Shown here: in pieces, positions 24,101 to 64,000 of the stretch
How the letters are laid out: each line of letters opens with the position of its first letter
Position numbering within the stretch: position 1 is the first letter of the stretch
Origin: a virus
Length of the DNA stretch: 64,000 nucleotides
Virus record (IMG/VR): IMGVR_UViG_3300032213_001813
Span: 1 to 64,000 of that record
Strand: one strand, 5' to 3'
Program-made: the position numbers and the translations under genes
Notes under the pieces: model-generated
Seen by the model: only the letters and a program-made list of their open reading frames with translations
Database searches by the model: none
Told to the model about the DNA's origin: nothing

Positions 24101-24393
24101 TTACTGAAGATTCTCCATATAGAAACAATGATATTGAGGAAAGAACACATGGTGCTGGTTTAATTGCACAAGAAGTTGAAGCAGTATTACCTGTATTGGT
24201 TGATGAAGATTGGGTTGGTGGTGAATATAATAGATACTTCAAAACTCTTAACTACAATGGTGTACATGGTTTGACTGTTCAGGGTATTAAAGAATTAAAA
24301 GGATATCATGATACATTAGAAGATAGAGTTGCTGCATTGGAAAGTAGATTGGAGCAATTGGAAAGTAGAATACAAAATTTAGAAAATCAATAA
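18133..24393 (+). CDS. Long tail fibre (2086 aa) with two Gly-X-Y blocks and a C-terminal intramolecular chaperone (peptidase S74-like)
   Basis: GTS blocks; 7-8 FYDxxNTGYYxDP units; C-terminal FSDADLKTN...GLIAQEVEAVLPVLV...LNYNG...IKEL followed by a coiled coil. Confidence 0.85.
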   Translation: MEFNGKSPNGLNQLSASLVSLFVSGGAVINVSPQSVNVLTDITASGVQTSEINPSVGGTLSIQGNTKITGSLLVSSSISASSVVANTLVGDGSGITNIPASSIGDIDRIKSGSVQTIISPNKGLEVQTSLTVKDFLVVTGSGIFRGDLSVAGTINTTELKATYISASIIFASGSNKFGDNVVDKHEFTGSVGISGSIFVTGNTIATDITTDEVLVLNTTTGRIGRKFAAASSGTSGTSGTSGTTGSSGTTGSSGTTGSEGTSGTSGTSGSGGTSGTSGSGGTSGTSGTSGTSGTSGSSGTTGSSGSSGTSATSGTSGSSGTSGSGGTSGTSGSGGSSGTSGSSGSSGSSGTTGSSGTTGSSGTTGSSGTTGSSGTTGSSGISGTSGTSGTSGTSGTSGTSGITGAGGSSGSSGSSGSSGSGGTTGSSGTSGSGGSGGTSGTSGTSGSSGITGAGGGAGTAGSGGTSGSSGTSGTSGTSGTSGTSGVSGSSGTSGTSGSSGTMGTAGSGGTSGTSGTSGTSGTSGSYGTSGTSGSSGTSGTSGTSGTSGSAGATGSSGSAGTSGTSGTSGALSITGTTDNGVITLNGSSPNVTAEANLTFDGTTLTVTGNETLSGNLTVGGTIRAQQIFVQYISASLIYASGSNKFGDATNDKQEFSGSVDIRDSLAIPAFATNPVGTKAGQIYYNTGDTNIYRYNGTTWLAAAGTSGSGGTSGTSGTSGSSGSSGTSGTSGTSGTSGTSGVSGSAGSSGTSGTSGTSGTSGTSGTSGTSGTSGTSGTSGTSGSSGTMGTAGSGGSSGSSGSSGSSGSSGSSGSSGSSGGAGVPGSPGTPGASGSSGSSGTSGTSGTSGTSGSSGSSGSSGTSGTSGTSGTSGTSGTSGTSGTSGTSGTSGSSGSSGTSGANAGITSFTNPADNRVLTAVSANTINAEANLTFDGSTLLVSGDVTATAYYNAQASSGYRLRNAGNTANVGGFTRRGLWEGNANYDPSLWAETGYSLYFYTNGSATSKMTLDTVGNLSLLGTLTATQVDTGQGLTEVHLMNQNIRTTDNVIHNQVTANSGGNGGAFYLSDTNAGLYRDNTYDVILLQANSSGNPLYMAGAGEVRVSIDSNNNETAQKFIVGNNAIKSTNELFSVNESGTAFASSDFRAPIFYDSANPTYYVDPATYTNLFGGFLMNGSHGSTLIQNSLPAANNGGGTGLVRMSWWVSEPGVTYDWGGFGYNVLNDGGSPSGFGRINTSFGQAYMRFGTSGQFYFYTTSTGGTRYTHMYLAPNNGVETYGRLYNDTYVDAPQFRDSSNTAYFLDPLSDSNLNTGTMNGRWKFSNYLRSNNAGGLMGDYDTNSTASKVIWTIGEAWPLANMYGLGYEYGSGYDHHLALRNNGTTYSRFGFAGAAFIGGNLTLGNDLYAYRFYDRDNTAYYCDPAGTSVFTYLTIANGNSVQANGYNNNGGFAMNNASTYWGLVWNFAANDWRLGYGSTTSQVGWNLRWDNGSTAFAQNFQANIYYDAQNTGYYVDPNSGTTSLRTAGDWRSDSGAWSGEFSGKIQYHSSNWYFQYAGQFLFRNSGGSNVTYGDTSGNLWAVASMRSPIFYDENNTGYYLDAASDRTTNINGFNSDTNARHGHTYKYNYWRPYITGDTNYWTGQMGWGTTDMNTVMTWGSGFTDSWSNPANQPSGTSHWVGVQTYHYVNSYNSGYGWQLVGGPIGNLRFRNSWPTNSGWVTVAMHDRNDGSGGGLYAGAYYDANDSGYYMDPNSTSNAAMRIRGGTLHGPNPSWGAYMYVGSNGRPGGEGSVVVTNGNLHLDCQNGYETYINHYSGNRTYLYEIRTNFIYDRDNTGYYLDPNGTSYQNVVYGAIFYDHDSTWYGDFNGNSRMSSGDFYFAGFSHMYRLGTQNSWNAYEGFGVSNSDNGQNATFEVNVYGNGGDWNSCGMNSNARKYEWYCGYTKMMDLDEGGHLRTRGAQWEWNGFSDADLKTNLQVIDNALEKISQISGYTYEFTEDSPYRNNDIEERTHGAGLIAQEVEAVLPVLVDEDWVGGEYNRYFKTLNYNGVHGLTVQGIKELKGYHDTLEDRVAALESRLEQLESRIQNLENQ
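18829..19839 (+). repeat. Gly-X-Y (GTS/GSS) block 1 of second fibre, 337 codons
   Basis: Visible triplet repeat. Confidence 0.95.
20242..20841 (+). repeat. Gly-X-Y (GTS/GSS) block 2 of second fibre, ~200 codons
   Basis: Visible triplet repeat; contains the single proline-bearing stretch GVPGSPGTPG. Confidence 0.95.
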
Positions 24394-37459: not shown

Positions 37460-37839
37460 GGGGATGACCGGCTTTTGACAGGTATGAAGACTGGTTGTAT
37501 TGATGCAAGTAAGGTTAGATGGAAACCTTTGAAGACCTATCAAACAATAAGTGCAGACGTAGAATTATCTACAATGACTTTCGGAGATGCTATGGCATGG
37601 ATGGAGTCTTTCGATTACGCAGTAGCTGCCTAATCAATCCCGTATCACTCATGGGATTTAAAAAGAAGTGAATGTTTAAGTTTACCGAAACTTTAAATCG
37701 GTTGGTGGAATCTGCTGAATTAACCATTCGGCCCCAATTCTTTTGGAGTGTTAGTAAGATAAAACACTATCCTAAACTTGTGAACGATTTACATTAGAAA
37801 CTTATCTGGACGCGGGTTCGAATCCCGCCATCTCCACCA
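37460..37839 (+). ncRNA. ssrA: tmRNA (380 nt)
   Basis: 5' GGGGATG pairs with 3' CATCTCC-ACCA including the G3-U Ala identity pair; T-arm GCGGGTTCGAATCCCGC; internal tag frame 37553-37633 ends YAVAA-stop. Confidence 0.95.
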
Positions 37840-51490: not shown

Positions 51491-52504
51491 ATGAGCAATT
51501 TATTTACAGAAAGAATAGCGTACAAACCATTTGAATATCCAGACTATTACACCGAAGGGTGGTTGAAGCAAATGCAGGCATTTTGGTTACATACCGAAAT
51601 ACCAATGCAAGGAGATGTTAAAGACTGGAATGAAAATTTAACAAAAGAAGAAAAACATTTAGTAGGAAATATTCTATTGGGTTTTGCTCAAACTGAATGT
51701 GCGGTTTCCGATTATTGGACTGGTATGGTAACTAAATGGTTTCCAAAACACGAAATTAAACAAATGGCAATGGCGTTTGGTTCGCAAGAAACAATACATT
51801 CGGTTGCATATTCGTATTTGAATGAAACTTTAGGATTGGATGATTTTGCAGGTTTTATGCATGATGATGTTATGAAGGAAAGATTTGAATTACTAACAAA
51901 TACAACCGCAGATTGGACTCCTACTGATTTACAAACAAATCACAAAGCTAGAGTTGAGGTTGCTCGTTCACTTGCTATCTTTTCGGCATTTGCGGAGGGT
52001 GTGGCATTATACTCTTCGTTTGCAGTACTTTACTCATTCCAAATGAGAAATCTATTAAAAGGTATTGGGCAACAAATGAAGTGGAGTGTAAGAGATGAAT
52101 CCCTACATTCAAAAATGGGATGTCAATTATTCAGACATATGTGCGATGAGTTTCCTGAATTGTTAGAAGAAGCAAAATCATCTATCTACGAAGCAGCATT
52201 AATCATTAGAGATTTGGAGCATAAGTTCATTGATAGAATATTTGAAAAAGGTGATTTAGAAAATCTAAAAGCAAGTGACTTAAAAGAATTTATTACAAAA
52301 AGAGTTAATGAGAAATTAGGAGAGTTGGGATATAACCCAATACCTGGTGGTGATGATTACTTTGAATACAACGAAGAATCGGCATCGCAATTAGATTGGT
52401 TCTATCACTTAACTGGTGGAGTAACCCATACCGACTTCTTTGCAATGAGACCTACTGATTACAGTAAAGCAAACGAAGGTGAAGATTGGTCTGATATATT
52501 TTAA
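51491..52504 (+). CDS. nrdB: Class I ribonucleotide reductase beta subunit
   Basis: YKPFEYP, FW..TE, ETIHSVAY, EGVALYSSF, RDESLH, C-terminal DFF..RPTDYSK. Confidence 0.95.
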   Translation: MSNLFTERIAYKPFEYPDYYTEGWLKQMQAFWLHTEIPMQGDVKDWNENLTKEEKHLVGNILLGFAQTECAVSDYWTGMVTKWFPKHEIKQMAMAFGSQETIHSVAYSYLNETLGLDDFAGFMHDDVMKERFELLTNTTADWTPTDLQTNHKARVEVARSLAIFSAFAEGVALYSSFAVLYSFQMRNLLKGIGQQMKWSVRDESLHSKMGCQLFRHMCDEFPELLEEAKSSIYEAALIIRDLEHKFIDRIFEKGDLENLKASDLKEFITKRVNEKLGELGYNPIPGGDDYFEYNEESASQLDWFYHLTGGVTHTDFFAMRPTDYSKANEGEDWSDIF

Positions 52505-52514
52505 TTAAAATTTT

Positions 52515-54296
52515 ATGAAACATTACGGAGAAGAATTCGGTTGGGAAATCGATGTTGATTACCCATCGTGGGGAAATACGGAAATATACGTTAAAACAAT
52601 CTCAAAAGGTTATCTATTAGATGGTGAAAAGCCAAAAGATGCCTATTGGAGAGTTGCAACGGCAGTAGCTAGAAGATTGGGTAAACCACAACTTGCTACA
52701 AAGTTCTTTGATTACATTTGGAGAGGGTGGTTATGTTTAGCAACACCAGTATTATCAAATACAGGTACGGATAGGGGTTTACCTATTAGTTGTTTTGGTA
52801 TTGATGTTGGTGATAGTATCTATGAGATTGGATATAAGAATTTGGAGTTGATGTTATTGGCAAAACATGGTGGGGGTGTTGGTATTGGTATCAATCAAAT
52901 CAGACCTGCTGGTTCAAAGATTACAGGTAATGGTACATCGGATGGTGTAGTTCCATTTTGTAAAATTTATGATTCAACTATCCTAGCTACAAATCAGGGT
53001 TCAGTTCGTAGAGGAGCCGCTTCGGTGAATATGAACATTGAACACAAAGATTTTGAAGATTGGTTGGAGATTAGAGAACCAAAGGGTGATGTAAACCGCC
53101 AATCACTTAATATGCACCAATGTGCGGTAGTGGGTGATAAGTTTATGAGAAAGTTGCAGGAGGGGGAATCCGAAGCAAGAAGAAAGTGGGGTAAACTATT
53201 ACAAAAAAGAAAAGCAACTGGAGAACCTTATATTATGTTTAAGGGTAATGTAAACAAACAAAATCCAGACGCATATAAGAAAAATGGATTGAAGGTTTAT
53301 ATGACTAATATTTGTTCGGAGATTGTTCTACATACTGATGAATCTCACTCATTTGTATGTTGCCTTTCATCATTAAACTTAGCTAAATACGATGAGTGGA
53401 AAGATACGGATTTAGTGTACACTTCTACGATGTTTTTAGATGGTGTTTTAGAGGAGTTTATTCAAAGAGCTAAGGGATTGGTTGGATTTGATAATTCAGT
53501 TCGTTCAGCGGCAAAAGGAAGAGCATTGGGATTGGGAGTTTTGGGATGGCATACATACCTACAACAAAAAGGTGTTCCATTTGAAGGATTACAAGCACAA
53601 TTTGAAACTCGTAAAATATTCTCTCAAATTAAGATTGAATCGGAAAGAGCAAGTAGAGATATGGCATCCGAATATGGAGAACCCCTATGGTGTAGAGATA
53701 CCGGTTTTAGAAATACGCACCTAAGAGCAGTAGCACCAACGGTATCAAACTCTAAATTGAGTGGTAACGTAAGTAGTGGTATTGAACCTTGGGCAGCTAA
53801 CGTATTTACGGAGCAAACTTCTAAAGGTACGTTTATCCGTAAGAATCCTGAATTGGAAAGAGTTTTGAAAAAGATTGGAAAAAATACAAAAGAAACTTGG
53901 GATAGAATATTGGAAGATGGTGGTTCGGTGCAAGATTTGGCATTTTTAGATGAGTGGTGTTTCTTAGATAGTAAGTTAGTACAATGTAACGAAGTAACTA
54001 CGGAAGAGCATCAGAATAAATGTAATTCAGTTAAGGATGTATTCCGTACATTCAAAGAGATTAACCAATTAGATTTGGTAAAGCAGGCAGGTATAAGACA
54101 ACAATACATTGACCAGGCAGTATCTCTAAACTTAGCATTCCCATCAATTGCTGACCCGAAATGGATTAATCAAGTAACTATGGAAGCTTGGAAGCAGGGA
54201 GTAAAAACCTTATATTATATGAGAACTGAATCAGTACTAAGAGGTGATATTGCAGCAAGAGCAACTGACCCGGATTGTGTAAGTTGTGAGGGATAA
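52515..54296 (+). CDS. nrdA: Class I ribonucleotide reductase alpha subunit (short; no N-terminal ATP-cone recognised)
   Basis: ATPVLSN, GLPISCF, TNICSEI, CCLSSLNL, RALGLGVLG, APTVSNS, KTLYYMR, C-terminal CVSCEG. Confidence 0.95.
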   Translation: MKHYGEEFGWEIDVDYPSWGNTEIYVKTISKGYLLDGEKPKDAYWRVATAVARRLGKPQLATKFFDYIWRGWLCLATPVLSNTGTDRGLPISCFGIDVGDSIYEIGYKNLELMLLAKHGGGVGIGINQIRPAGSKITGNGTSDGVVPFCKIYDSTILATNQGSVRRGAASVNMNIEHKDFEDWLEIREPKGDVNRQSLNMHQCAVVGDKFMRKLQEGESEARRKWGKLLQKRKATGEPYIMFKGNVNKQNPDAYKKNGLKVYMTNICSEIVLHTDESHSFVCCLSSLNLAKYDEWKDTDLVYTSTMFLDGVLEEFIQRAKGLVGFDNSVRSAAKGRALGLGVLGWHTYLQQKGVPFEGLQAQFETRKIFSQIKIESERASRDMASEYGEPLWCRDTGFRNTHLRAVAPTVSNSKLSGNVSSGIEPWAANVFTEQTSKGTFIRKNPELERVLKKIGKNTKETWDRILEDGGSVQDLAFLDEWCFLDSKLVQCNEVTTEEHQNKCNSVKDVFRTFKEINQLDLVKQAGIRQQYIDQAVSLNLAFPSIADPKWINQVTMEAWKQGVKTLYYMRTESVLRGDIAARATDPDCVSCEG

Positions 54297-54316
54297 ACAA
54301 ATAAACAAATAAAATT

Positions 54317-54580
54317 ATGTTAGAAGTTAAGAAATTTTCAGCAAGTTGGTGTGGACCATGCAAAACATTGGCACCAACATTTAATGAGGTAAAAAATTCA
54401 TTTAGTGGAGTATCCTTCAACGAATACGATATTGATGATAGTTCAGATATTGCATCTCAATTTGGAATCCGTTCAGTACCAACTGTATTATTAGTTAAAG
54501 ATGGTAAGGAAGTGAAAAGAATTGTAGGAGCACAATCTAAAATGGTATATGAAAACGCCATAAATGAAAATTTAGGATAA
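54317..54580 (+). CDS. trxA: Thioredoxin
   Basis: WCGPC active site; FGIRSVPT. Confidence 0.92.
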   Translation: MLEVKKFSASWCGPCKTLAPTFNEVKNSFSGVSFNEYDIDDSSDIASQFGIRSVPTVLLVKDGKEVKRIVGAQSKMVYENAINENLG

Positions 54581-54584
54581 AAAA

Positions 54585-54616
54585 TTAGGAAAATCCAAAT
54601 AAAAGTGTTATATTTG
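54585..54616 (+). promoter_or_regulatory. Bacteroidota-type promoter, variant -33
   Basis: TTAG-N20-TATATTTG, with the ATG 4 nt downstream. Confidence 0.65.
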
Positions 54617-54620
54617 TTAC

Positions 54621-54824
54621 ATGGGAATATTAAGGGGTCAAACGCACCCATCTGCCAAACTTACGGATGAGCAGGTGTTACAAATTAGAAGACTATGGCA
54701 AATGGGTCATAGGAATATTAAAGTGATTGCCCGAAACAATAAGGTATCGCCATCAAATGTGTTAAAAATTATCCAACGTAAAACTTGGACTCATCTAAAC
54801 GAATTTTGGTCTGGTAGTTTATGA
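54621..54824 (+). CDS. Stand-alone HTH DNA-binding module of the type found on HNH homing endonucleases
   Basis: G..HPSAKLTDEQVLQIR...IA....VS.SNV.KII.RKTW.H; no nuclease domain. Confidence 0.6.
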   Translation: MGILRGQTHPSAKLTDEQVLQIRRLWQMGHRNIKVIARNNKVSPSNVLKIIQRKTWTHLNEFWSGSL

Positions 54825-55594
54825 AAATAGAAGGTAAACAATATTGCGATATCTCTAAATTTTCAATTAGAGAGATTAACAAAAACATAGCAAAGGATAT
54901 CATTGTCAATAACCATTATAGTGGGATATGGACGAAGGTATCCTATGCTTTGGGATTGTTCTACATATCCGAAGATGAGCACAATTTCTTTAGTGGGGTG
55001 AATGAACAATTAGTTGGAGTTGCCTGTTATGGTGACCCAGTTGGTAGAAACGCAGGAGCATCTATTTCGGAGTTACTTCCAAGAGATGGTGTGTTAGAAT
55101 TGACCCGATTATTTGTATTTGATGGATATGGTTCTAACATTGAGAGTTGGTTTGTTGGACAATCGTTTGAATGGTTACGAAAGAATGTACCTCGTATCAA
55201 AGCCCTAATATCATATTCAGACCCAAATGCTGGACATTTAGGAACGGTATATCAAGCTACTAATTGGATATATCAGGGTAACAAAATCAGATGGAGTGAT
55301 AGTTGGAGTTTTAAATGGAGTGAGGAAGATGAATGGCATCATAGTAGAACATCCTATGTGAAATATGGAACGAATGACCCTAAGATAATTCAGACAATGG
55401 TAACATCTCCATTTTGGATTAAAAGAGAACCTCGTAAGCATAGATATGTGTATATTCTAACCAAAGATAAGAAAGAAAGAAAATCATTTATAAATTCACT
55501 AAAACATGAAGTGTTTCCATATCCCAAAGTGGAGTTGGATATTATTGATGAGGTTCATAAAATGGACCCGATAAATTTGGAAATATCAAATTAA
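54821..55594 (+). CDS. mom: Mom-like GNAT-fold DNA modification protein, paralogue 1
   Basis: HYS, ELTRL, SYSD...GHLGTVYQATNWIYQG, HSRT, KHRY. Confidence 0.8.
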   Translation: MKIEGKQYCDISKFSIREINKNIAKDIIVNNHYSGIWTKVSYALGLFYISEDEHNFFSGVNEQLVGVACYGDPVGRNAGASISELLPRDGVLELTRLFVFDGYGSNIESWFVGQSFEWLRKNVPRIKALISYSDPNAGHLGTVYQATNWIYQGNKIRWSDSWSFKWSEEDEWHHSRTSYVKYGTNDPKIIQTMVTSPFWIKREPRKHRYVYILTKDKKERKSFINSLKHEVFPYPKVELDIIDEVHKMDPINLEISN

Positions 55595-55607
55595 TTTCGT
55601 AACTTTG
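55576..55607 (+). promoter_or_regulatory. Bacteroidota-type promoter
   Basis: TTTG-N20-TAACTTTG, with the ATG 4 nt downstream. Confidence 0.75.
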
Positions 55608-55611
55608 TATT

Positions 55612-55920
55612 ATGGCTAAAAAACTAATAGAAGTACCAAACGCAACTCAATTCGAAAAAGTTTATAAAGATGAGGATTGTACAATGGTTTGGAAGTATGA
55701 TACTAACAAATTCACAAATGGACCTGTATCGGTTGAAATCAAATGGAGTGCTGAATATCTGAAAGAAAACAAATCACCAAGAAAACCAAAAGCAGAAGGT
55801 AAATTAGGTGAGTTGCATGATGCGTTCGCTAAGTTAGATGCTAAACGGAAGAAAAAGAAAAAGCCGGTAGCTAAAAAAAAAATGACAATAAAGAAGAAGA
55901 TGGTTTCTGGTAAGATATGA
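55612..55920 (+). CDS. Small basic protein with Lys-rich tail
   Basis: 102 aa ending KRKKKKKPVAKKKMTIKKK; has its own promoter. Confidence 0.6.
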   Translation: MAKKLIEVPNATQFEKVYKDEDCTMVWKYDTNKFTNGPVSVEIKWSAEYLKENKSPRKPKAEGKLGELHDAFAKLDAKRKKKKKPVAKKKMTIKKKMVSGKI

Positions 55921-56717
55921 AAGTAGAAGGAAAAGATTATTGTGATGTTAGTAAGGTGTATGTTCATCCAATAGCTAAAAACATTGCAAAAGATATTATT
56001 GTAAAGAAACACTATACTCACGCTTGGACAGCTTGTAGATATGCATTAGGAATTTATTACAAATCCGATGATGCTAATACATTTGATGGAGATAGATTGA
56101 TAGGTTGTGTGATTTACGGATTCCCAGTAGGTGCAAAGGCATCAACATCAATTTGTGAGGGATTAACCAAAGATAACATTTTAGAACTAACTCGTCTATA
56201 TTGTGATGATGGGTATGGTTCTAACATTGAATCATTTGCATTAGGACAGACATTCAAATGGTTAAAAGAAAACGATAAAGCAATCAAAGTACTCCTATCA
56301 TATGCGGATAACGGACAGGCACATTTAGGTGGTATCTATCAAGCTACAAATTGGATTTATCAAGGATTATCATCAGATATAGCACTAATGCCAAATTGGG
56401 GTATCTCATTAAGTAAAGACCCTTACAAATGGATTCATAGTAGAACTGTATTCTCCCTATGGGGTAGTGGTAATTTGGCACACTTACAAAACGAAATTGG
56501 TAAAGAGGGATATAAAGAATTTTGGAGAAGAGAAGAACCACCAAAACATAGGTACGTTCAGATAATTGCGCAAGATAAAAGAGAGAAGAAGGATTTGATG
56601 GGTAGGTTGAAGCATGAAATTAAACCCTACCCAAAAGATACTGCATCTTATAATACAGAAGTAGTACATCATTTAACAACATACGAAGTACCAGAAGGAA
56701 CTGAAAACTTTTGGTAA
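55917..56717 (+). CDS. mom: Mom-like GNAT-fold DNA modification protein, paralogue 2
   Basis: HYT, ELTRL, SYAD..QAHLGGIYQATNWIYQG, HSRT, KHRY; the N-terminus closely resembles paralogue 1. Confidence 0.8.
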   Translation: MKVEGKDYCDVSKVYVHPIAKNIAKDIIVKKHYTHAWTACRYALGIYYKSDDANTFDGDRLIGCVIYGFPVGAKASTSICEGLTKDNILELTRLYCDDGYGSNIESFALGQTFKWLKENDKAIKVLLSYADNGQAHLGGIYQATNWIYQGLSSDIALMPNWGISLSKDPYKWIHSRTVFSLWGSGNLAHLQNEIGKEGYKEFWRREEPPKHRYVQIIAQDKREKKDLMGRLKHEIKPYPKDTASYNTEVVHHLTTYEVPEGTENFW

Positions 56718-56721
56718 AATA

Positions 56722-56753
56722 TTTGGAAATATCAAAATTATTTATTACCTTTA
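56722..56753 (+). promoter_or_regulatory. Bacteroidota-type promoter, variant -7
   Basis: TTTG-N20-TACCTTTA. Confidence 0.55.
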
Positions 56754-56777
56754 TAAAACACATAAACCCATAACAAA

Positions 56778-58622
56778 ATGACAAAAGAATTAAAAAATGA
56801 GTTAATTGATTTTCTAACATCAAATGAAAATAAACGTATTTTTATTTCAACATTAAAGGATATACGTCCTATATACAGAGCACACCAACCATTTGGTAGT
56901 TTAGTTGCTCATATATTTAATTCTGGTTGGAATCGTAAACCAAAATTTGATAACTCTGATGTTATACAAAATAAACTTGGTTATGTGTTTCGTTTGGGGT
57001 CTGGACTTGCTTCAATTAATCAAATTCCTATATCATTATTAACAGACACTGCATCTCCTATACAAAACTTTTTGTTAAAGGATAGGGGTCATATATTAGA
57101 AATTACTTGTAAATTGTATGATATTAAAAATTGGAGTGTTCTTGATTTAATAAAAACTGTTGATTCTGAAATAAAAGAATTAGTTGAAAATACAATACAT
57201 CAAAGTTCTGATAGAAAAAATGCATTAATTATATTAAATTCTATAAAAGAATTTATAAATACAAAGCATGGTGAATTTTTATCAAATGGTATAACGGAAC
57301 AATGTGAAATGAAAATATCAATTAGAGATATTGCAGATGCTGTTCCTGAATTTGAAAAAAACTTAAATGATACCGAATTATCAGTTGAAGTTAAGCGTGA
57401 AAGTGTACCTACTCATATAAAAGAAATTTTATGGTTAAATAACCACAATAACAAATGGTCTGATACTCAATTAGCATGGTTATCGTTTTGGGCATATTGC
57501 TTTGAAAAAGATAATAATTCTGATTATATTGATACTGTTCTAAAATATGATAATCTTATTTCCATATTAGATAAAAGCAGTACATTTAATGGTACTCTTA
57601 ATTCGGAAAATGAGTATCCTTTATTATCAAATTGTATTGAAAAACATCGCAAAAAATTCACAGAAGGTTCTATTATAATTCCAATAAGATTAGTAGCAGC
57701 TGATTGTGGTATTTCCGATTTCTCTGAAATAGCTAAAACTTTGGAAAAAGAAAAACAAACAACATTTGAAAGTTTGTATAAATTTTTACATAAGAATAAA
57801 GTTTCTAAAGATGATTTTTTAAACTATACAAACTTATATGAAAAGATAATGAATCAGCCGGCTTGGGCTAAATTTGTTAAAAAAGTTAAAGCATTTAAAA
57901 AAACAAACTATAATAGCAAATCAAGTGTTATAGATACTACTAATTTAGAACATACTAATATTCTACACTCATCATATGGTGGACCTGCTCTTATAGCTTG
58001 TGCTAGAATTATTAATGAAGTTTGTGATAGTAGAACATCAGAATCTCAAATTAAAAAAATAGTTGATGATTTTTGTAATAGACTTTACAATAAAGTTGAA
58101 GAGGTTTGTAATGATGGTACATACTTTTCCGCTTCAAGCAAATCATCAATGCGTGTAATTTTAACTATTTTGCCTGTATTTACGGATATGATGAATGGAG
58201 CTGCATCAAAGGATAAAACTTTAACTAAACAGCAAGTATATGAAACTTTGTTGAATGAAGTAAAAGGATATCTTGATGGACAAGTTAAATTTAAAGTTGT
58301 AAAATTAACAACATCTAATTATAGTGGAAATCCCGATGTAACGGAAATTGATTTTTCGGAGTACGAAAGAGCTAAAGCTGGATTTGATTTGGGACAAAAG
58401 GAGCAAACTATGGGATACTCTTTAGATAATTGTATTGTTCAACAAAAACACCACAACCGCTCAGCACATAATGTTGACCATAATATTGGTAATGTTGATT
58501 ATTGGAAATGGTACTCTGAAGCGAATTTACAAATTGTAAACTCCAATAAGCAGTATTTCTTTGATAATGATATGGTTGAAGTTATATCTGATGCTAAAAA
58601 ACTAAATGAAAGATTTAATTAA
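56778..58622 (+). CDS. Hypothetical protein (614 aa), possible degenerate HNH-like C-terminus
   Basis: Long AT-rich ORF; FDLGQ...GYSLDNCIVQQKHHN loosely resembles an HNH motif. Confidence 0.5.
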   Translation: MTKELKNELIDFLTSNENKRIFISTLKDIRPIYRAHQPFGSLVAHIFNSGWNRKPKFDNSDVIQNKLGYVFRLGSGLASINQIPISLLTDTASPIQNFLLKDRGHILEITCKLYDIKNWSVLDLIKTVDSEIKELVENTIHQSSDRKNALIILNSIKEFINTKHGEFLSNGITEQCEMKISIRDIADAVPEFEKNLNDTELSVEVKRESVPTHIKEILWLNNHNNKWSDTQLAWLSFWAYCFEKDNNSDYIDTVLKYDNLISILDKSSTFNGTLNSENEYPLLSNCIEKHRKKFTEGSIIIPIRLVAADCGISDFSEIAKTLEKEKQTTFESLYKFLHKNKVSKDDFLNYTNLYEKIMNQPAWAKFVKKVKAFKKTNYNSKSSVIDTTNLEHTNILHSSYGGPALIACARIINEVCDSRTSESQIKKIVDDFCNRLYNKVEEVCNDGTYFSASSKSSMRVILTILPVFTDMMNGAASKDKTLTKQQVYETLLNEVKGYLDGQVKFKVVKLTTSNYSGNPDVTEIDFSEYERAKAGFDLGQKEQTMGYSLDNCIVQQKHHNRSAHNVDHNIGNVDYWKWYSEANLQIVNSNKQYFFDNDMVEVISDAKKLNERFN

Positions 58623-58921
58623 TGAAATTTGATAAAACTAAAAATGAAATAGTACATCACACATCATCTTTTAAAGATGGACATATTATTGTTGCTGCTG
58701 AAATATGTAAACTAAAACAAAACAGGTTGGTATTAATTGTACCAACCTGTAAACGTTATTCATTTCATATATTACGTGCCTTTGAATTATTAGGTGATGA
58801 TTTGTTGGTATATGAAATAACAATGGGTATGGGTGTGGTATTGGAAGCCCGTGCAAAAAAATATATAGAATACCATCCAAATAGTAAATTATATGAAAAA
58901 AATCCATTTTTTAAGTATTGA
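58622..58921 (+). CDS. Hypothetical protein (99 aa)
   Basis: Translationally coupled (TAATG); weak recalled resemblance to a segment of phage PALP-fold proteins. Confidence 0.45.
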   Translation: MKFDKTKNEIVHHTSSFKDGHIIVAAEICKLKQNRLVLIVPTCKRYSFHILRAFELLGDDLLVYEITMGMGVVLEARAKKYIEYHPNSKLYEKNPFFKY

Positions 58922-59681
58922 GACTGAAACTCAATCTAATATTGAAAAGAATTTAATTGAAAGTTCAAGAATAAATAATATTGATTTGCATATAATTGGT
59001 AGAGGTGTAAAGTGGGAAGGGTTTATTACTAAATTTCAAATACTTAAAGAATATCTACCAACAATTAGTGAAGATATTGTATGCTTAACAGATTCGCGTG
59101 ATGTATTGTATATGTCAGATTCTAAAAAAATATATAATACGTTTATTAAAAACTTTTCAAAAGATTGTATTGTATTCAATGGAGAAACAAATTGTTTTCC
59201 TGAAAAGAGTTTTGCTGAACTACATCCAAACCAAAGTAAAAAATACAAATATTTAAATTCTGGATGCGTAATCGGTAGTAGAATTTTACTTATTGAAATT
59301 ATTGATAAGTGTTTAGAATTATATGATAGTTGTAAGATAAATGATGACCAATATTTACTTCAAAAAATATTTTTAGATGGTGAGTATGGTGATGCATTTA
59401 CAATAGATTATGATTGCAAAATATTTCAATGTATTTGGGATGAGGATTATGGTAGAAGTAATAACTTTGATTTGGTATATACGCAAAACGAAATTTACAA
59501 TAGATTAACAGATACATATCCGTTAATATTTCACTACCCCGGACCTACTTGTACTGGTTCTCAGGTTTGGAAAATACTAAATAAAAAGTATTATAAAATA
59601 CCAAACACAAAATACTATAAAGAAAAGAAAAAAAAATATGAAAGTATTAGTGATTCCGAATTACACAAACTTTGGCTCTAA
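58893..59681 (+). CDS. PLOD/LH3-type GT-A glycosyltransferase
   Basis: W.GF..K...LKEYL, LTDSRDV (DxxD), FNGETNCFP, YLNSGCVIG, DDQY, IDYDCKIFQC, LIFHYPG, in the same order as the GT domain of procollagen lysyl hydroxylases. Confidence 0.75.
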   Translation: MKKIHFLSIETETQSNIEKNLIESSRINNIDLHIIGRGVKWEGFITKFQILKEYLPTISEDIVCLTDSRDVLYMSDSKKIYNTFIKNFSKDCIVFNGETNCFPEKSFAELHPNQSKKYKYLNSGCVIGSRILLIEIIDKCLELYDSCKINDDQYLLQKIFLDGEYGDAFTIDYDCKIFQCIWDEDYGRSNNFDLVYTQNEIYNRLTDTYPLIFHYPGPTCTGSQVWKILNKKYYKIPNTKYYKEKKKKYESISDSELHKLWL

Positions 59682-60750
59682 CAAAGATATAAATAGAGAT
59701 TCATTTTTGCTGGTATTTAAGGCATTTTTGGATAACACAAAAATAGGTAAGGAGTGGGAGTTTGTACTACCATACCCTGATATGGATAACCATCCTGGCA
59801 TTATTAATACATTCGAATATCCAAACGTATCACTTCGTAGAATGGATGGGTTAGATTGCTTTCCTCCAAAGATGAGAGTAAACTATCCATATAAGTTTTT
59901 CCAACGATTAATTGATAAGGAAAACTTTAATCTAATTTGGTCACATTTACCTGAATGGACTCACGAATACAAAATTACTCGTATCTACAATAAAACACAA
60001 CCTATTATCGGATACTGCCATTGGTGGGAAATCAAAGATAATGGTGCTAGAGATGATAACTCTTTTTGGAAAAACGTAAAGGGTATGTTGGATATGAAAG
60101 TATGTGGTGTAAACTCCCAATGGGTTAAAGATTTGGTAATTAAAAGAGCATCTGAAGATTTTCAACCACACATCATTGAAAAGTTGGATAGGATTATTCA
60201 GCCTTGGTATTTGGGTACGGATGAATTTGTAGAACCAAAAGAATATAAACCAAAAACTATTGTCTTTAATCATAGGGAAGGTGTATATACAGGTTCCGAA
60301 TGGTTCTTCGAAGCTATGGATAATTTATGGAAAGAAAGACAGGATTTTGAAGTATGGACTAGTTTGAAAGATATGAAAAAACCATACACAAAATACATTG
60401 GGCATGCCGATAGAAATGTATATATGAATCAACTATCACAGGCTCATTTTGGAGTTGGTTGTTTCCAAACATATTCAGCATGGAGTATGAGTACAACGGA
60501 TGGATTGAGTAGAGGTGTTCCCTATGTACTACCAAACGGATTATGTTACCCTGAAATGGTTGGTAATGATTATCCATTACTATACAATTCGAAGGAGCAT
60601 TTTAAAGAAGTGGTTGTTGGGTTATTAGATGGAACAATTGAAAGACCTGATGTAAGTGCAATATCAAAAGCCTTATTATGGGAAAACTCATTGAAAAGTT
60701 GGGATATTGAAACCAATTTTGAAAAAACCGCTAGAATATTTGAAGATTAA
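59638..60750 (+). CDS. GT-B fold glycosyltransferase (GT4-like)
   Basis: LIWSHLPEW, YCHW, IVFNHREG, AWSMSTTDGLSRGVPYVLP...YPEMVG. Confidence 0.7.
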   Translation: MKVLVIPNYTNFGSNKDINRDSFLLVFKAFLDNTKIGKEWEFVLPYPDMDNHPGIINTFEYPNVSLRRMDGLDCFPPKMRVNYPYKFFQRLIDKENFNLIWSHLPEWTHEYKITRIYNKTQPIIGYCHWWEIKDNGARDDNSFWKNVKGMLDMKVCGVNSQWVKDLVIKRASEDFQPHIIEKLDRIIQPWYLGTDEFVEPKEYKPKTIVFNHREGVYTGSEWFFEAMDNLWKERQDFEVWTSLKDMKKPYTKYIGHADRNVYMNQLSQAHFGVGCFQTYSAWSMSTTDGLSRGVPYVLPNGLCYPEMVGNDYPLLYNSKEHFKEVVVGLLDGTIERPDVSAISKALLWENSLKSWDIETNFEKTARIFED

Positions 60751-60763
60751 TTAAAAAGACACG

Positions 60764-63283
60764 ATGTACCAGAACGCATATTACCAAAGAGAAAAGAATT
60801 TAGTGCACATTTGGGATGATAAACAAGGATATAGAAGTTTTCCTTACACTCGTTATGCGTATGAAAAAGCCGAAAGAGGTGATTATACATCCCTATATGG
60901 TGATAAACTAACAAAGATATACAAATTCAAAAAAGATGACCCGAACTTATTTGAATCCGATGTACCTGAAACAACTCGTATATTGGTGGACACTTATACG
61001 GATTCGGATGTTCCATCGGAGGGGCACGTTATCTTAACATACGATATTGAGTGTGAGATGGAGACCGGATTGCCGGATACTGAAAAAGCTGAAAATGAAT
61101 TAACTGCAATTGGTTTACATGATTCGGCAGCTGACCAATACTATGTTTTGATTATGGATAAGGCTGGAAAGATGGTTGAAAAAACTATTGGGAAAGCAAT
61201 TGTAATTCCGTTTAGAGATGAAAGGGATATGATACTTAAATACTTGGATTTGTATGAGTATATCAATCCCTCAATCGTTACAGGATGGAACATTGATTAC
61301 TTTGATACACCTTACCTATACAATCGTATTAAAAGGGTGTTAGGAGCAAAGCATGCTAATCGTTTATCACCGATTGGAGAATGTTTCTGGTCACCATATC
61401 GTAAGAGATTCTTTATGGCAGGTGTATCTTATTTGGATTACATTGGGTTGTACAAATCATATACCTATGTTGAGTTAGATAACTATCGTTTGGATACGGT
61501 AGCAACAAAAGAATTGGGTAGGGGTAAGATTGAGTACAAGGGTAATTTGGATAACTTATTCAGAGATGATATTGAAAAGTTTATTGAGTATAACTTAGTG
61601 GATGTTCAGTTGGTTGTGGATATGGAACGTAAGTTACAATTCATAGATTTATGTAGAGGTATCTGCCACGCTGGACACGTACCTTATGAGGATTTTGTAT
61701 ATTCATCCAAATTTTTAGAGGGAGCACTTCTAACTTATCTAAAGAGAAAGAACATTGTAGCACCTAACAAACCTGCGGATAGACAGGAGATGATGCAGGC
61801 ATTGAGAGATAATGAACAAGAGAAGTTTATCGGAGCATATGTTAAAGCACCTATTGTTGGTAAGTATGATTGGATATATGACTTAGACTTAACATCTCTA
61901 TATCCATCCATCATTATGACCTTAAATATCTCACCGGAAACAAAGGTAGCTAAGATTGATAATTGGGATGCTCAAAAGTATATGAAGGGTGAGATTGATG
62001 AGTTTAATATTGGCAATCGAACTATTTCAAAGGAGAATTTAGAAAAGTTATTTAAGGAAACCAATTATTCAGTATCATCAAATGGTGTAATGTATAGAAC
62101 CGATAAGCCAGGCTGTATTCCTGATATTTTGGATTTGTGGTTTGACCAAAGGGTTGAATTCCGTAAGTTGGAAAAGAAATTTGGTGAAGCTGGTGATAAA
62201 GAAAAATATGCATTCTATAAGAAAAGGCAGTTAGTTCAGAAAATTCTACTTAACTCACTATACGGAGTATTGGGATTACCTGCATTCCGTTTTTATGATG
62301 TGGATAATGCTGAAGCTGTAACAACATCAGGTCAAACTGTAATTAAATCCACAGCTGATATGGCTAATATTAAATACAATAAAGAATTAGGAACTAAAGG
62401 AGAGGATTTCAATATCTACATTGATACGGATTCGGTATTCTTTTCAGCAGTACCAATTCTAAACCATAGATATGAGGATTGGAAATCAGAAAACGATACT
62501 GAAATTGCATTAAAAGTGGATGCTATTGCTGGTGAAACGCAAGATTTCTTAAATAACTTCTATGATATATTATCCGAAAAGGTATTCAAAGTAGATAAAA
62601 CCAAACATCGTTTCCAAATCAAAAAGGAGTTTGTATCTAAATCAGGTATTTGGATTGCTAAAAAGAGATATGCACAATGGATTATTGCGGAAAATGGTAT
62701 TCCGTGTGATAGATTGGATGTTAAAGGATTGGACGTAGTTCGTTCATCATATCCTGCCCAATTCCGTAAGTTTATGAGTGAGGTTTTGATTGATATTCTA
62801 AGAGGTGTAGGTGAAGATGAAATGACGGATAAGATATATGATTTTAAGAAAGCATTATCGGAAATGGAAGTAGTATCTATCGCTAAGAATTCAGCAGTTA
62901 AAGAGTTATCTAAATACATACCAAAGAAAAAGGATAATAGGGCAATGTTCCAATTCAATAGTGGAACTCCTGCACACGTTAAGGCAGCAATTGCACATAA
63001 CCAACTAATTGCTCACTTTAATATTCAAAAGTGTGAACCAATGAGAGATGGTGATAAAATTAAATGGGTGTATCTAAAACAAAATCCATATGGTTTAGAT
63101 GGGCTTGGATTTAAAGGTTACGAAGACCCAGACGAAATTATGGATTTGGTAAAAACTTACATTGATTACGATAAAATCTTTGAAAGGGAACTACTAAAGA
63201 AGTTAGAAGATTTCTATGGAGCATTGGGTTGGGGTGAAGTTCTTTCTTCACAAAAAACAGCTGAAAAGTTTTTCTCTTTTTAG
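60764..63283 (+). CDS. gp43: Family B DNA polymerase
   Basis: Exo YDIE, GWNIDYFD, YNLVD; Pol DLTSLYPSII, KILLNSLYG, YIDTDS, KKRYA. Confidence 0.97.
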   Translation: MYQNAYYQREKNLVHIWDDKQGYRSFPYTRYAYEKAERGDYTSLYGDKLTKIYKFKKDDPNLFESDVPETTRILVDTYTDSDVPSEGHVILTYDIECEMETGLPDTEKAENELTAIGLHDSAADQYYVLIMDKAGKMVEKTIGKAIVIPFRDERDMILKYLDLYEYINPSIVTGWNIDYFDTPYLYNRIKRVLGAKHANRLSPIGECFWSPYRKRFFMAGVSYLDYIGLYKSYTYVELDNYRLDTVATKELGRGKIEYKGNLDNLFRDDIEKFIEYNLVDVQLVVDMERKLQFIDLCRGICHAGHVPYEDFVYSSKFLEGALLTYLKRKNIVAPNKPADRQEMMQALRDNEQEKFIGAYVKAPIVGKYDWIYDLDLTSLYPSIIMTLNISPETKVAKIDNWDAQKYMKGEIDEFNIGNRTISKENLEKLFKETNYSVSSNGVMYRTDKPGCIPDILDLWFDQRVEFRKLEKKFGEAGDKEKYAFYKKRQLVQKILLNSLYGVLGLPAFRFYDVDNAEAVTTSGQTVIKSTADMANIKYNKELGTKGEDFNIYIDTDSVFFSAVPILNHRYEDWKSENDTEIALKVDAIAGETQDFLNNFYDILSEKVFKVDKTKHRFQIKKEFVSKSGIWIAKKRYAQWIIAENGIPCDRLDVKGLDVVRSSYPAQFRKFMSEVLIDILRGVGEDEMTDKIYDFKKALSEMEVVSIAKNSAVKELSKYIPKKKDNRAMFQFNSGTPAHVKAAIAHNQLIAHFNIQKCEPMRDGDKIKWVYLKQNPYGLDGLGFKGYEDPDEIMDLVKTYIDYDKIFERELLKKLEDFYGALGWGEVLSSQKTAEKFFSF

Positions 63284-63354: not shown

Positions 63355-64000
63355 ATGAACAGAAGCAAATTTGATGGTTTCGTTGGTCGTTACAACTTAG
63401 GTGGTGAGATTGAATCCGTTATGGTAAAATCCGATGATAATACATTATCGGTAAGAATGATTTCAGATGATAAAACTCTATTAGGTGATGTAAGTGTTGC
63501 AGAATCGGATTTTCCAAATGGTGAGTTTGGCATTTATACAACATCACAATTAAAAGGTTTGTTATCAGTATTAGGTGATGCTATCACTATTGAAGAAGTG
63601 ACTGGAGCATTAAAGTTTTCGGATAAGAAAACTAAAGTACAATATATGTTAGCTGCACCATCAGTTATCCCTGCGGTACCTGATTTGAAAGCACTTCCTC
63701 CATTTGATGCAGAAATTACATTAGATGATGATTTTGTAAATACATTTATCAAATCAAAAGGTGTGTTATCGGATGCGGATACATTTACATTTATTCACAA
63801 AGGTGGTAAGGGTGAGATTATTTTAGGATACTCTTCAATCAACTCCAACCGAATTTCATTGGATGTGGATTCAACTGCAACTAATGATATCGAACCAATT
63901 GCATTCTCTGCAAAGTATTTGAAAGCTATCTTAATGGCTAACAAAGGTTCTAAAACATCTTCATTGAAAATCTCTTCAAAAGGATTATCGCACGTATCAT
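63355..64000 (+). CDS. gp45: Sliding clamp (gp45-like), 3'-truncated; absent from the ORF track
   Basis: Own translation MNRSKFDGFVGRYNLGGEIESV...EFGIYTTSQLKGLL...QYMLAAPSVIP...FSAKYLKAIL; open to the window end; follows PolB. Confidence 0.75.
   Translation, partial: MNRSKFDGFVGRYNLGGEIESVMVKSDDNTLSVRMISDDKTLLGDVSVAESDFPNGEFGIYTTSQLKGLLSVLGDAITIEEVTGALKFSDKKTKVQYMLAAPSVIPAVPDLKALPPFDAEITLDDDFVNTFIKSKGVLSDADTFTFIHKGGKGEIILGYSSINSNRISLDVDSTATNDIEPIAFSAKYLKAILMANKGSKTSSLKISSKGLSHVS

Follow-up and report, generated by a model that had tools for sequence, protein, structure and literature searches.

The window analysed here, a 64,000-nucleotide stretch covering positions 1 to 64,000 of IMG/VR record IMGVR_UViG_3300032213_001813, comes from an uncultured water phage whose 188-kb genome is 97% complete. 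It contains an island with two Mom-family GNAT genes, here termed Mom1 and Mom2, which are the sole Mom genes across the 97%-complete genome (Table 1). The island is preceded by genes for the small and large RNR subunits and a thioredoxin and followed by those for a family B DNA polymerase (PolB) and a processivity factor, in agreement with an initial annotation that had placed a candidate DNA modification system between RNR and PolB. The same annotation had described the Mom genes as being followed by two glycosyltransferases, PolB and the clamp; all of these are present, but two intervening ORFs, of 614 and 99 aa, had been overlooked. The PolB is 51% identical to that of the Mom-less relative Mel-JY01, in which two small ORFs lie between thioredoxin and the PolB gene downstream of it.

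Table 1. Genes of the Mom island and its borders (positions in the window).
Feature	Positions	Strand	Basis of assignment
Thioredoxin, conserved left island border	54317..54580	+	PF00085 E 2e-21
67-aa HTH-like protein	54621..54824	+	HTH_7 E 0.0095 (weak); phrog_20467, C-terminal part, E 3e-6
Mom1, Mom-family GNAT, 257 aa	54821..55594	+	PF25680 E 7e-44
Lys-rich ORF, 102 aa, lineage-specific insert	55612..55920	+	No family match (Pfam, PHROGs, NCBIfam)
Mom2, second Mom-family GNAT, 266 aa	55917..56717	+	PF25680 E 2e-43
p614, 614-aa hypervariable-slot protein	56778..58622	+	No family match; weak structural matches
99-aa ORF, companion of PLOD-type glycosyltransferase	58622..58921	+	No recognised family; co-occurrence with GT-A
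PLOD-type GT-A glycosyltransferase, accessory cassette	58893..59681	+	PF25342 E 1.2e-29
p370, 370-aa predicted GT-B glycosyltransferase directly upstream of PolB	59638..60750	+	Fold model, Foldseek
Family B DNA polymerase, right island border	60764..63283	+	PF00136/PF03104; phrog_262 E 9e-183
Sliding clamp (processivity factor), cut by window end	63355..63999	+	phrog_223 E 3.7e-13

Profile searches placed both proteins in the Mom family PF25680, with scores of 150.3 bits for Mom1 and 149.0 bits for Mom2, each more than 120 bits above the gathering score of 27.1 bits, and with profile positions 2–202 of 202 covered. Both also matched phrog_1384 (E 1e-47 for Mom1 and 4e-46 for Mom2), and both aligned to the Mu Mom entry PDB 8BV8, which Mom1 matched at E 1.4e-10. 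The two proteins are 49% identical to each other and 25–29% identical to Mu Mom. They had been described as diverged paralogues with shared motifs, and each of the named motifs (ELTRL, SY(S/A)D, HLGxxYQATNWIYQG, HSRT, and KHRY) was indeed found in both.

Mu Mom transfers glycine from Gly-tRNAGly onto adenine N6 in double-stranded DNA, forming N6-carbamoylmethyl-dA and blocking restriction enzymes (PMC13219725, Silva et al. 2026); the acyl chemistry assumed in the initial annotation is thus outdated, the donor being Gly-tRNAGly and not acyl-CoA. Among the Mu Mom residues with a role in activity (PMC13219725), H58, Y59, R111, S124, D149, and Y159 were invariant in 25 orthologues (13 of Mom1 and 12 of Mom2), and the equivalent of W181 was nearly invariant in the same set. 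By contrast, R151, which is essential in Mu Mom, is replaced by N or K in Mom1 and by G in Mom2. It is likewise missing from the Mom of a Polaribacter phage and from all four Moms of the related contig L166, and a His at Mu position 154, near R151, is nearly invariant instead; from these alignments, R151 looks specific to the Mu lineage and not family-defining. The Mu dimer residue W48 is also replaced, by N, S or D, in both paralogues. Since R151 and W48 are not kept, mechanistic details may differ from those of Mu Mom. The HTH-like insertion of Mu Mom (residues 175–209) aligns in both paralogues, with W181 and H183 retained, and is 4 aa longer in Mom2 than in Mom1. Judged by sequence, Mom1 and Mom2 truly belong to the Mom family and their catalytic residues are intact, and both are predicted to be catalytically competent relatives of Mu Mom that modify adenine N6 in DNA in an aminoacyl-tRNA-dependent manner.

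To examine the prevalence of the pair, we used two overlapping fetches of 80 IMG/VR loci each (~130 loci, with PolB identity down to 51–55%). The order HTH, Mom1, Mom2 recurred in every fetched locus that reached far enough, Mom1 and Mom2 were never found apart, and more than 100 related contigs keep the pair by the DNA polymerase, revealing the neighborhood conservation that the initial annotation had named as a check. The dN/dS values of 0.069 for Mom1 and 0.056 for Mom2 show that both genes are under strong purifying selection. Their orthologues form one clade per paralogue (SH-aLRT 99), indicating that the split is old, and 23 sites are fixed differently between the two, most densely in the HTH-like DNA-binding insertion (Mom1 181–200), with others on either side of the HY motif and of the catalytic Ser and Asp residues. 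The two genes abut or overlap by 14–17 nt in distant relatives, and in the near clade they are separated by additional ORFs, up to 415 aa long. A third Mom gene follows PolB in two relatives (L116 and L139), and four Mom genes, each retaining the catalytic residues, are dispersed over L166. None of 331 Mom-bearing isolate-phage records had two copies, each carrying exactly one, and no published description of tandem or multiple Mom genes was found in the literature.

Each Mom gene of the island is preceded by a small ORF whose stop overlaps the Mom start by 4 nt. The proposed arrangement of two two-gene units with the small partner first therefore holds for this genome, but it is not general, as the Lys-rich ORF is confined to the nearest clade (44–95% identity) and is absent where Mom1 and Mom2 overlap; its distribution marks it as a late, lineage-specific insert. 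In nearly all loci, by contrast, the 67-aa HTH-like ORF immediately precedes Mom1; it has 23 invariant residues and a dN/dS of 0.089. A Com-like identity was rejected for this protein because it has no cysteines; it matches HTH_7 and phrog_20467 weakly and is a candidate regulator or DNA-binding accessory. The host-type promoter assigned to each unit did not stand up to comparison with shuffled sequence: positions 54200–60900 contain 41 sigma-70-like sites, compared with 39.9 ± 6.7 in shuffles, so that promoters of the Mom units are not above chance.

The closest characterized parallel is phage Mu, with which the locus shares the GNAT fold family, the HTH-like insertion, the six catalytic residues listed above, and a small upstream ORF overlapping the mom start; by analogy, the expected role here would be protection of phage DNA from restriction. 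The locus differs from Mu in that two diverged copies are kept as a pair with R151 and W48 replaced, in that the upstream ORF is HTH-like and cysteine-free whereas Mu Com is a zinc-finger translational activator, and in that the genes form part of the replication module in a 188-kb phage of lytic type whereas Mu mom is a terminal gene of a transposable prophage. Polaribacter phage P12002L carries a single-copy Mom-like gene of the same family (44% identity). In Microbacterium phage BarnCat, a small HTH gene likewise overlaps the start of a single-copy Mom, located between primase/polymerase and DNA Pol I, although its HTH protein has no detectable homology to the 67-aa protein described here. 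Many palindromes are wholly avoided in the genome, GATC being observed 0 times against ~726 expected; Mom activity, whatever its nature, thus leaves restriction-site avoidance necessary.

On balance, we favor an explanation in which the core of the island is an old, conserved three-gene operon, encoding the small HTH protein, Mom1, and Mom2. A large clade of T4-like phages, aquatic and uncultured, would carry it as an insertion in the replication module, with thioredoxin on one side and PolB on the other. Mom1 and Mom2 would be non-redundant, tRNA-dependent adenine modifiers that act side by side on the DNA of the phage itself and differ in DNA sequence context, aminoacyl donor, or both, so that jointly they may shield a larger number of sites or counter a wider set of host nucleases. 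The third and fourth Mom genes of relatives (L116, L139, and L166) support such independent action. The genes to the right of Mom2 would contribute no further steps to the Mom pathway: p614 would occupy a swap-in slot for conflict genes, the GT-A and its 99-aa partner would form a rare accessory cassette, most likely for glycosylation of collagen-like fibers, and p370 would be a conserved neighbor of PolB.

The initial annotation had offered two specificities or a heteromer, a fair reading given that the pair is conserved and under selection and that both catalytic sets are intact. In the heteromer version, Mom1 and Mom2 would form one obligate heterodimer whose halves specialized after duplication, for example in DNA recognition versus tRNA binding. 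Mu Mom is a tight obligate homodimer, and its monomeric W48A variant is nearly inactive (PMC13219725); replacement of W48 in both paralogues implies a changed dimer interface, the 14–17-nt overlap in distant relatives suggests coupled translation, and the strict co-retention of just these two genes, never separate in the fetched loci, fits a heterodimer equally well. We nevertheless consider an obligate heterodimer unlikely, since both proteins have every conserved catalytic residue and neither looks like a pseudo-enzyme, the Mom genes of some relatives, three or four in number, are scattered among other genes, and inserted ORFs separate the pair in the near clade.

A second reading, which could coexist with two parallel modifiers, makes the Mom pair the modification half of a restriction-modification-like system, with p614 as the nuclease directed against unmarked DNA of the host or of rival phages. 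The same logic was proposed by Iyer et al. for jumbo phages, in which Mom domains are fused to restriction-fold nucleases (PMC7824862); Mom and a putative nuclease likewise share a conflict context here, but as separate genes and with an exchangeable candidate nuclease. A ParB_N–Mom fusion protein (P0076) also exists. p614 had no family match in Pfam, PHROGs, NCBIfam or PADLOC. Its model (pLDDT 80) comprises a possible ParB-like N-domain, a helical middle, and a small C-terminal beta domain; the best Foldseek matches were DndI (E 1.4e-3), SspE, and BrxU, all weak, and structural comparison (VIA) gave Z ~6 over 94–99 residues for ParB/Noc and Z 5.3 for BrxU, under the confident Z of 8. Based on this model, p614 is a candidate GmrSD/SspE/DndI-like conflict protein, with KDRGH where GmrSD/SspE-type DUF262-DUF1524 enzymes, which combine a ParB-like N-domain with a C-terminal His-Me finger, have DGQQR. 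It occupies a hypervariable slot between Mom2 and the glycosyltransferases that holds non-homologous families in relatives, among them a GmrSD-like DUF262/HNH family that carries the motifs DGQQR and DHxxP. However, hhalign gave no link between p614 and that family, the slot elsewhere houses DruA-like, AAA, SAM-lyase, and unassigned proteins, p370 directly follows Mom2 in two relatives (L012 and L013), and the substrate of GmrSD is modified rather than unmodified DNA. We therefore regard the restriction-modification-like reading as doubtful.

A more elaborate arrangement, a self-contained kit for adenine aminoacylation in which two specialized Moms making different adducts or acting on different motifs are fed by phage tRNAGly-like molecules and docked at the replisome, strikes us as quite improbable. 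At a distance of ~70 kb from Mom1 and Mom2, the phage has conserved tRNAGly-like genes in which the GlyRS identity elements are retained but U33 is replaced by G33 and the anticodon loop has 6 nt; their products look chargeable yet unfit for ribosomal decoding. In Staphylococcus, non-proteinogenic tRNAGly feeds FemXAB, and the phage genes could by analogy feed a tRNA-dependent GNAT. Docking would involve short conserved C-terminal peptides: Mom2 orthologues end in a conserved (N/S/K)(F/Y)W tail (...NFW here) and PolB in a conserved FF(S/A/G)F tail (...FFSF here). In the extreme version of this arrangement, p370 would add a sugar to one of the adducts.

Two glycosyltransferases had been noted next to the Mom genes, and both were recovered, one as a PLOD-type GT-A (PF25342, 103.7 bits against a cut-off of 27, residues 2–219 covered) and the other, p370, as a predicted GT-B. 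The acyl-then-sugar pathway built on them, in which the Mom adduct on adenine would be glycosylated by p370 with or without the GT-A, fared poorly, and we consider it very unlikely. p370 has no Pfam match. Its AF2 model (pLDDT 80, pTM 0.79) has a GT-B fold with two Rossmann-like domains, and Foldseek matched it at E ~1e-9 to BshA, MshA, and PimB (TM up to 0.69) and to 9IR0, the glycosyltransferase of phage HY126; its viral structural neighbors include Arthrobacter phage and SP-15 glycosyltransferases. The DNA of HY126 contains arabinosylated 5-hydroxycytosine (PMC13326640), and p370 resembles the HY126 enzyme and the T4 alpha- and beta-glucosyltransferases in its GT-B fold and its position among replication genes; in most relatives it shares a strand block with the Mom pair and PolB. 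The 97%-complete genome contains no ThyA-family or ThyX enzyme and thus no usual hydroxymethyl-pyrimidine acceptor, a point in favor of the pathway. However, p370 has no sequence similarity to the T4 and HY126 enzymes, the genome encodes no hydroxymethylase, and 9IR0 is one among many equal GT-B matches, the best being small-molecule and lipid GT4 enzymes, generic fold neighbors at 10–15% identity. p370 occurred in 53 of the first 80 loci, with 373 stretches confirmed in IMG/VR, but the hypervariable slot separates it from Mom2, one record has it 13 kb from the tandem Mom pair, and three 27–37-kb fragments carry it without a Mom gene. Moreover, the amide of N6-carbamoylmethyl, the known Mom product, offers no hydroxyl. 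The GT-A cassette is rare, being present in only ~10 fetched loci, several of which are the same contig fetched twice, and the 99-aa ORF always accompanies the GT-A (L015, L020, L021, L023, L117, L129, and L130). The window encodes giant collagen-like proteins (3225 and 2086 aa) and the genome three 2OG-Fe(II) oxygenases, which makes the family-typical protein target available, and the GT-A cassette probably glycosylates a collagen-like fiber protein, such fibers being other possible acceptors. The link of either glycosyltransferase to the Mom pathway is thus weak, although p370, which most relatives keep next to the pair, may have some functional connection to it.

That one or both paralogues have abandoned DNA in favor of RNA, tRNA, protein or small-molecule substrates, which they would aminoacylate or acylate, is extremely unlikely: GNAT substrates are unpredictable from structure (PMC13219725) and R151 is not kept, but the HTH-like insertion needed for DNA modification by Mu Mom is retained with W181 and H183, the genes sit within a replication module, PolB–Mom fusion proteins exist (P0138 and P0072), and Mom genes lie beside polymerases in unrelated phages as well (BarnCat and L166).

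The chemistry of Mom, which glycylates adenine in DNA in a tRNA-dependent reaction, was worked out as recently as 2026, and for one enzyme only. A widespread phage clade in which two Moms, and in some members three or four, have diverged yet stayed intact under strong selection constitutes a natural experiment that bears on what determines the choice of DNA motif and aminoacyl donor in this family, and it may point to adenine adducts beyond carbamoylmethyl. Our analysis also disposes of the notion, tempting though poorly supported, of an extension of the Mom adduct by the neighboring glycosyltransferases. The predictions that follow from two parallel modifiers are directly testable with the published plasmid-based assay.

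The source record spans 188,016 bp and is rated 97% complete; the window is its first 64 kb. All genes between 51.4 and 64 kb (listed in the table below) are carried on the + strand. Mom1 and Mom2 each cover the Pfam Mom profile (PF25680) in full, are 49% identical to each other, and are the only Mom genes genome-wide in this 97%-complete record. The Mom motifs listed in the initial annotation were all found in both paralogues, and the small ORFs preceding Mom1 and Mom2 overlap the respective Mom start by 4 nt, as it had claimed. Glycosyltransferases do follow Mom2 as described, but a 614-aa and a 99-aa gene in between had been missed. The separate host-type promoters proposed for the two Mom units were not borne out, the region containing 41 sigma-70-like sites versus 39.9 ± 6.7 in shuffled sequences, and a consensus scan of the region for promoters and terminators gave chance-level results. 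Searches of the family-less proteins with NCBIfam and PADLOC gave no useful match, and no isolate phage was matched when the island was compared by megablast.

Features of the Mom island and other genes discussed in the text (window positions unless marked as genome positions)
Feature	Position	Strand	Family or remark
RNR small and large subunits	51491-54296	+	
Thioredoxin	54317-54580	+	
67-aa HTH-like ORF	54621-54824	+	
Mom1	54821-55594	+	Pfam Mom, E 7e-44
102-aa Lys-rich ORF	55612-55920	+	none
Mom2	55917-56717	+	Pfam Mom, E 2e-43
Mom2 C-terminal peptide	56693-56714		
p614, 614-aa ORF	56778-58622	+	none
99-aa ORF	58622-58921	+	none
PLOD-type GT-A	58893-59681	+	PF25342, E 1e-29
p370, 370-aa ORF	59638-60750	+	GT-B by fold
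PolB	60764-63283	+	
PolB C-terminal peptide	63260-63280		
Sliding clamp	63355-63999	+	phrog_223
Giant collagen-like ORFs	6370-16047 and 18133-24393		
334-aa collagen-like ORF	genome 72312-73316		
tmRNA	37460-37839		called by ARAGORN
Two odd tRNAGly-like genes heading the tRNA array	genome 127040-127186 (L168:241-387)		outside the window

Compared by PolB, the closest isolate is Microcystis phage Mel-JY01 (51%), in which thioredoxin is followed by two small ORFs and PolB, with no Mom gene; since the same frame occurs there without Mom, the Mom block forms an island within an otherwise conserved replication module. Related loci were retrieved from IMG/VR in two fetches of 80, one seeded with Mom1 and the other with p370, with contigs partly shared between the fetches. 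Mom1 followed by Mom2 was present in every fetched locus reaching far enough, down to 51–55% PolB identity, and one record retains the tandem pair even though it lies 13 kb away from p370. In distant clades Mom1 and Mom2 abut or overlap by 14–17 nt, and the Lys-rich ORF is restricted to the nearest clade, other ORFs sometimes occupying the gap; the ancestral unit was therefore HTH, Mom1, Mom2 instead of the two symmetric cassettes first envisaged. Median dN/dS relative to the window copy was 0.089 for the HTH ORF, 0.069 for Mom1 and 0.056 for Mom2. When the orthologues were placed in a tree alongside 45 wider-family representatives, those of Mom1 formed one clade and those of Mom2 another (SH-aLRT 99); the two clades share one group with poorly resolved branching, so the tree fits duplication and double acquisition alike. 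A second Mom copy was found in none of the 331 isolate-phage records with a Mom match, and the literature searched yielded no description of tandem or multiple Mom genes. The tandem arrangement is real and far beyond chance, and the Mom pair is old, conserved and under selection.

Mu Mom takes glycine from Gly-tRNAGly and attaches it to N6 of adenine in double-stranded DNA; once on the base, the adduct rearranges to give N6-carbamoylmethyl-dA (Silva et al. 2026, PMC13219725). Mu Mom is obligately homodimeric, and its W48A variant, a monomer, has almost no activity; four residues (R111, S124, D149 and R151) are essential, four more (H58, Y59, Y159 and W181) are important, and an HTH-like insertion (residues 175–209) is needed (PMC13219725). 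In our alignment of Mom1 and Mom2 orthologues with Mu Mom (A3), both paralogues keep H58, Y59, R111, S124, D149 and Y159 without exception and W181 almost without exception. By contrast, R151 is replaced by N/K in Mom1 and by G in Mom2, as it is also missing from other non-Mu homologues, and W48 is kept in neither. Nothing in these residues marks either copy as a dead partner. The two paralogues are fixed differently at 23 columns, most densely in the HTH-like insertion, several of them lying beside the HY motif, beside the catalytic Ser (ESWF versus ES[F/Y]A) and beside the catalytic Asp (SYSD versus SYAD); given these positions, a difference in DNA context, donor or both is plausible. On the best-supported reading, this conserved pair would act as two adenine modifiers of the Mom type that are not redundant.

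Mom1 and Mom2 may instead form a heterodimer, as suggested by their strict co-retention, by the overlap of their reading frames in distant clades and by loss of the Mu dimer residue. Against this, two loci (L116 and L139) contain a third Mom gene after PolB, and some relatives have ORFs inserted between Mom1 and Mom2. A related 58.7-kb Logan contig (SRR22452319; L166) carries four Mom genes of 194, 237, 260 and 194 aa dispersed around PolB, all four with intact catalytic residues, interleaved with genes for thioredoxin, peptide deformylase, dUTPase, PolB, Pyr_excise, dCMP deaminase and a DruA-like protein, which likewise argues for independent enzymes.

The small HTH ORF belongs to the ancestral layout, and a search with an HTH profile revealed no fused HTH-Mom form among 150 Mom-family representatives. 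Microbacterium phage BarnCat (L165, genes 62–66) has a layout matching that of the window: between primase/polymerase and DNA Pol I lies a Mom-like 'acetyltransferase' gene whose start is overlapped by a small HTH gene. Similarity between the two HTH proteins was not significant, and no homology was detected. A complex prediction pairing Mom1 and the HTH protein (alignments A5 and A4) gave a score of 0.00, which speaks neither for nor against binding.

Mom genes adjoin polymerases in unrelated phages as well (BarnCat and L166), and two cluster representatives, P0138 (1076 aa) and P0072 (1439 aa, with a LAGLIDADG intein), are predicted PolB-Mom fusions or gene-calling artefacts. T4-family polymerases bind the clamp through a tail of the FF(S/A/G)F kind. 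The C-terminus of PolB here is FF(S/A/G)F, conserved after a variable linker, and all Mom2 orthologues end in (N/S/K)(F/Y)W, also after a variable linker; Mom1 has a conserved K(L/M)(E/D)P(I/V) peptide, unlike that of Mom2. Compared across loci L005–L164, the terminal peptides of Mom2, PolB and Mom1 are possible docking motifs.

The initial annotation had also proposed an acyl-then-sugar modification, with p370 adding a sugar after Mom. The p370 model has a confident GT-B fold (pLDDT 80), and most relatives keep the gene directly upstream of PolB; it also occurs on three 27–37-kb fragments without a Mom gene. Its best structural matches are generic GT4-like enzymes, and the glycosyltransferase of phage HY126 (9IR0), whose DNA carries arabinosylated 5-hydroxycytosine (PMC13326640), is one among many equal-scoring matches. 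Among viral structures, the closest are glycosyltransferases from an Arthrobacter phage and from SP-15; tblastn of p370 against isolate phages and a profile search against PDB sequences gave no match. The PLOD-type GT-A occurs with the 99-aa ORF as a cassette, always directly upstream of p370, in only ~10 fetched loci, several being the same contig fetched twice. The genome encodes collagen-like (Gly-X-Y) ORFs of 3225, 2086 and 334 aa and three 2OG-Fe(II) oxygenases, a context typical of the PLOD family, and the collagen-like proteins are the likely targets of GT-A. Because the genome has no ThyA-family or ThyX gene, the standard hydroxymethyl-pyrimidine acceptor is absent, leaving DNA glycosylation without a known acceptor. 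With a rare GT-A cassette and generic p370 matches, the acyl-then-sugar model is unsupported, a sugar step by p370 retaining a small probability.

The Mom2-p370 interval, occupied by p614 in the window, is a hypervariable cargo slot across loci L005–L164. In relatives it is filled by p614-family members, by a genuine GmrSD-like family (DUF262/HNH, with the motifs DGQQR and DHxxP), by DruA-like proteins, by a SAM lyase together with an AAA protein, or by several unassigned families of 400–670 aa; in a few loci (L012 and L013) the slot is empty and p370 follows Mom2 directly. Structural matches of p614 were weak (DndI, SspE, BrxU and ParB-like), and tblastn against isolate phages and a profile search against PDB sequences returned nothing. 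Comparison of the p614 family with the GmrSD-like family by hhalign was negative, and hhalign of the DruA-like family with Mom1, using low-diversity alignments, was not significant. The slot resembles a hot spot for conflict genes and brings to mind the fusions of Mom with nucleases that Iyer et al. discuss (PMC7824862). One cluster representative (P0076, 420 aa) is a predicted ParB_N-Mom fusion, or a read-through gene call.

The genome contains 23 tRNA genes, three of them tRNAGly, and a tmRNA with a 26-residue tag peptide. Of the two odd tRNAGly-like genes, the first has a 6-nt anticodon loop and the second has anticodon UCC with G33 in place of the near-universal U33; both keep G1-C72, C2-G71, G3-C70 and U73, the acceptor-stem GlyRS identity elements. 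Four other complete or near-complete relatives with Mom genes (G006, G007, G008 and G018) also conserve the G33 gene, which was found neither in Mel-JY01, a phage lacking Mom, nor in one Mom-bearing record that is 87% complete. A pattern scan of IMG/VR for G33 tRNAGly gave 16 loci; L173 was discarded as a chance match in GC-rich DNA without a tRNA. All five near-complete genomes carrying the odd tRNA have the Mom pair, a co-occurrence that is not independent evidence of coupling because all carriers belong to one clade. That these genes could be dedicated donors for Mom is suggestive only.

Several palindromes are nearly or wholly missing from the genome (observed/expected): GATC, 0/about 726; CTATAG, 0/30; TACGTA, 0/23; CTTAAG, 1/31; GTTAAC, 2/43; and GGTACC, 3/70. 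With avoidance this extreme, the phage depends heavily on restriction-site avoidance besides any DNA modification.
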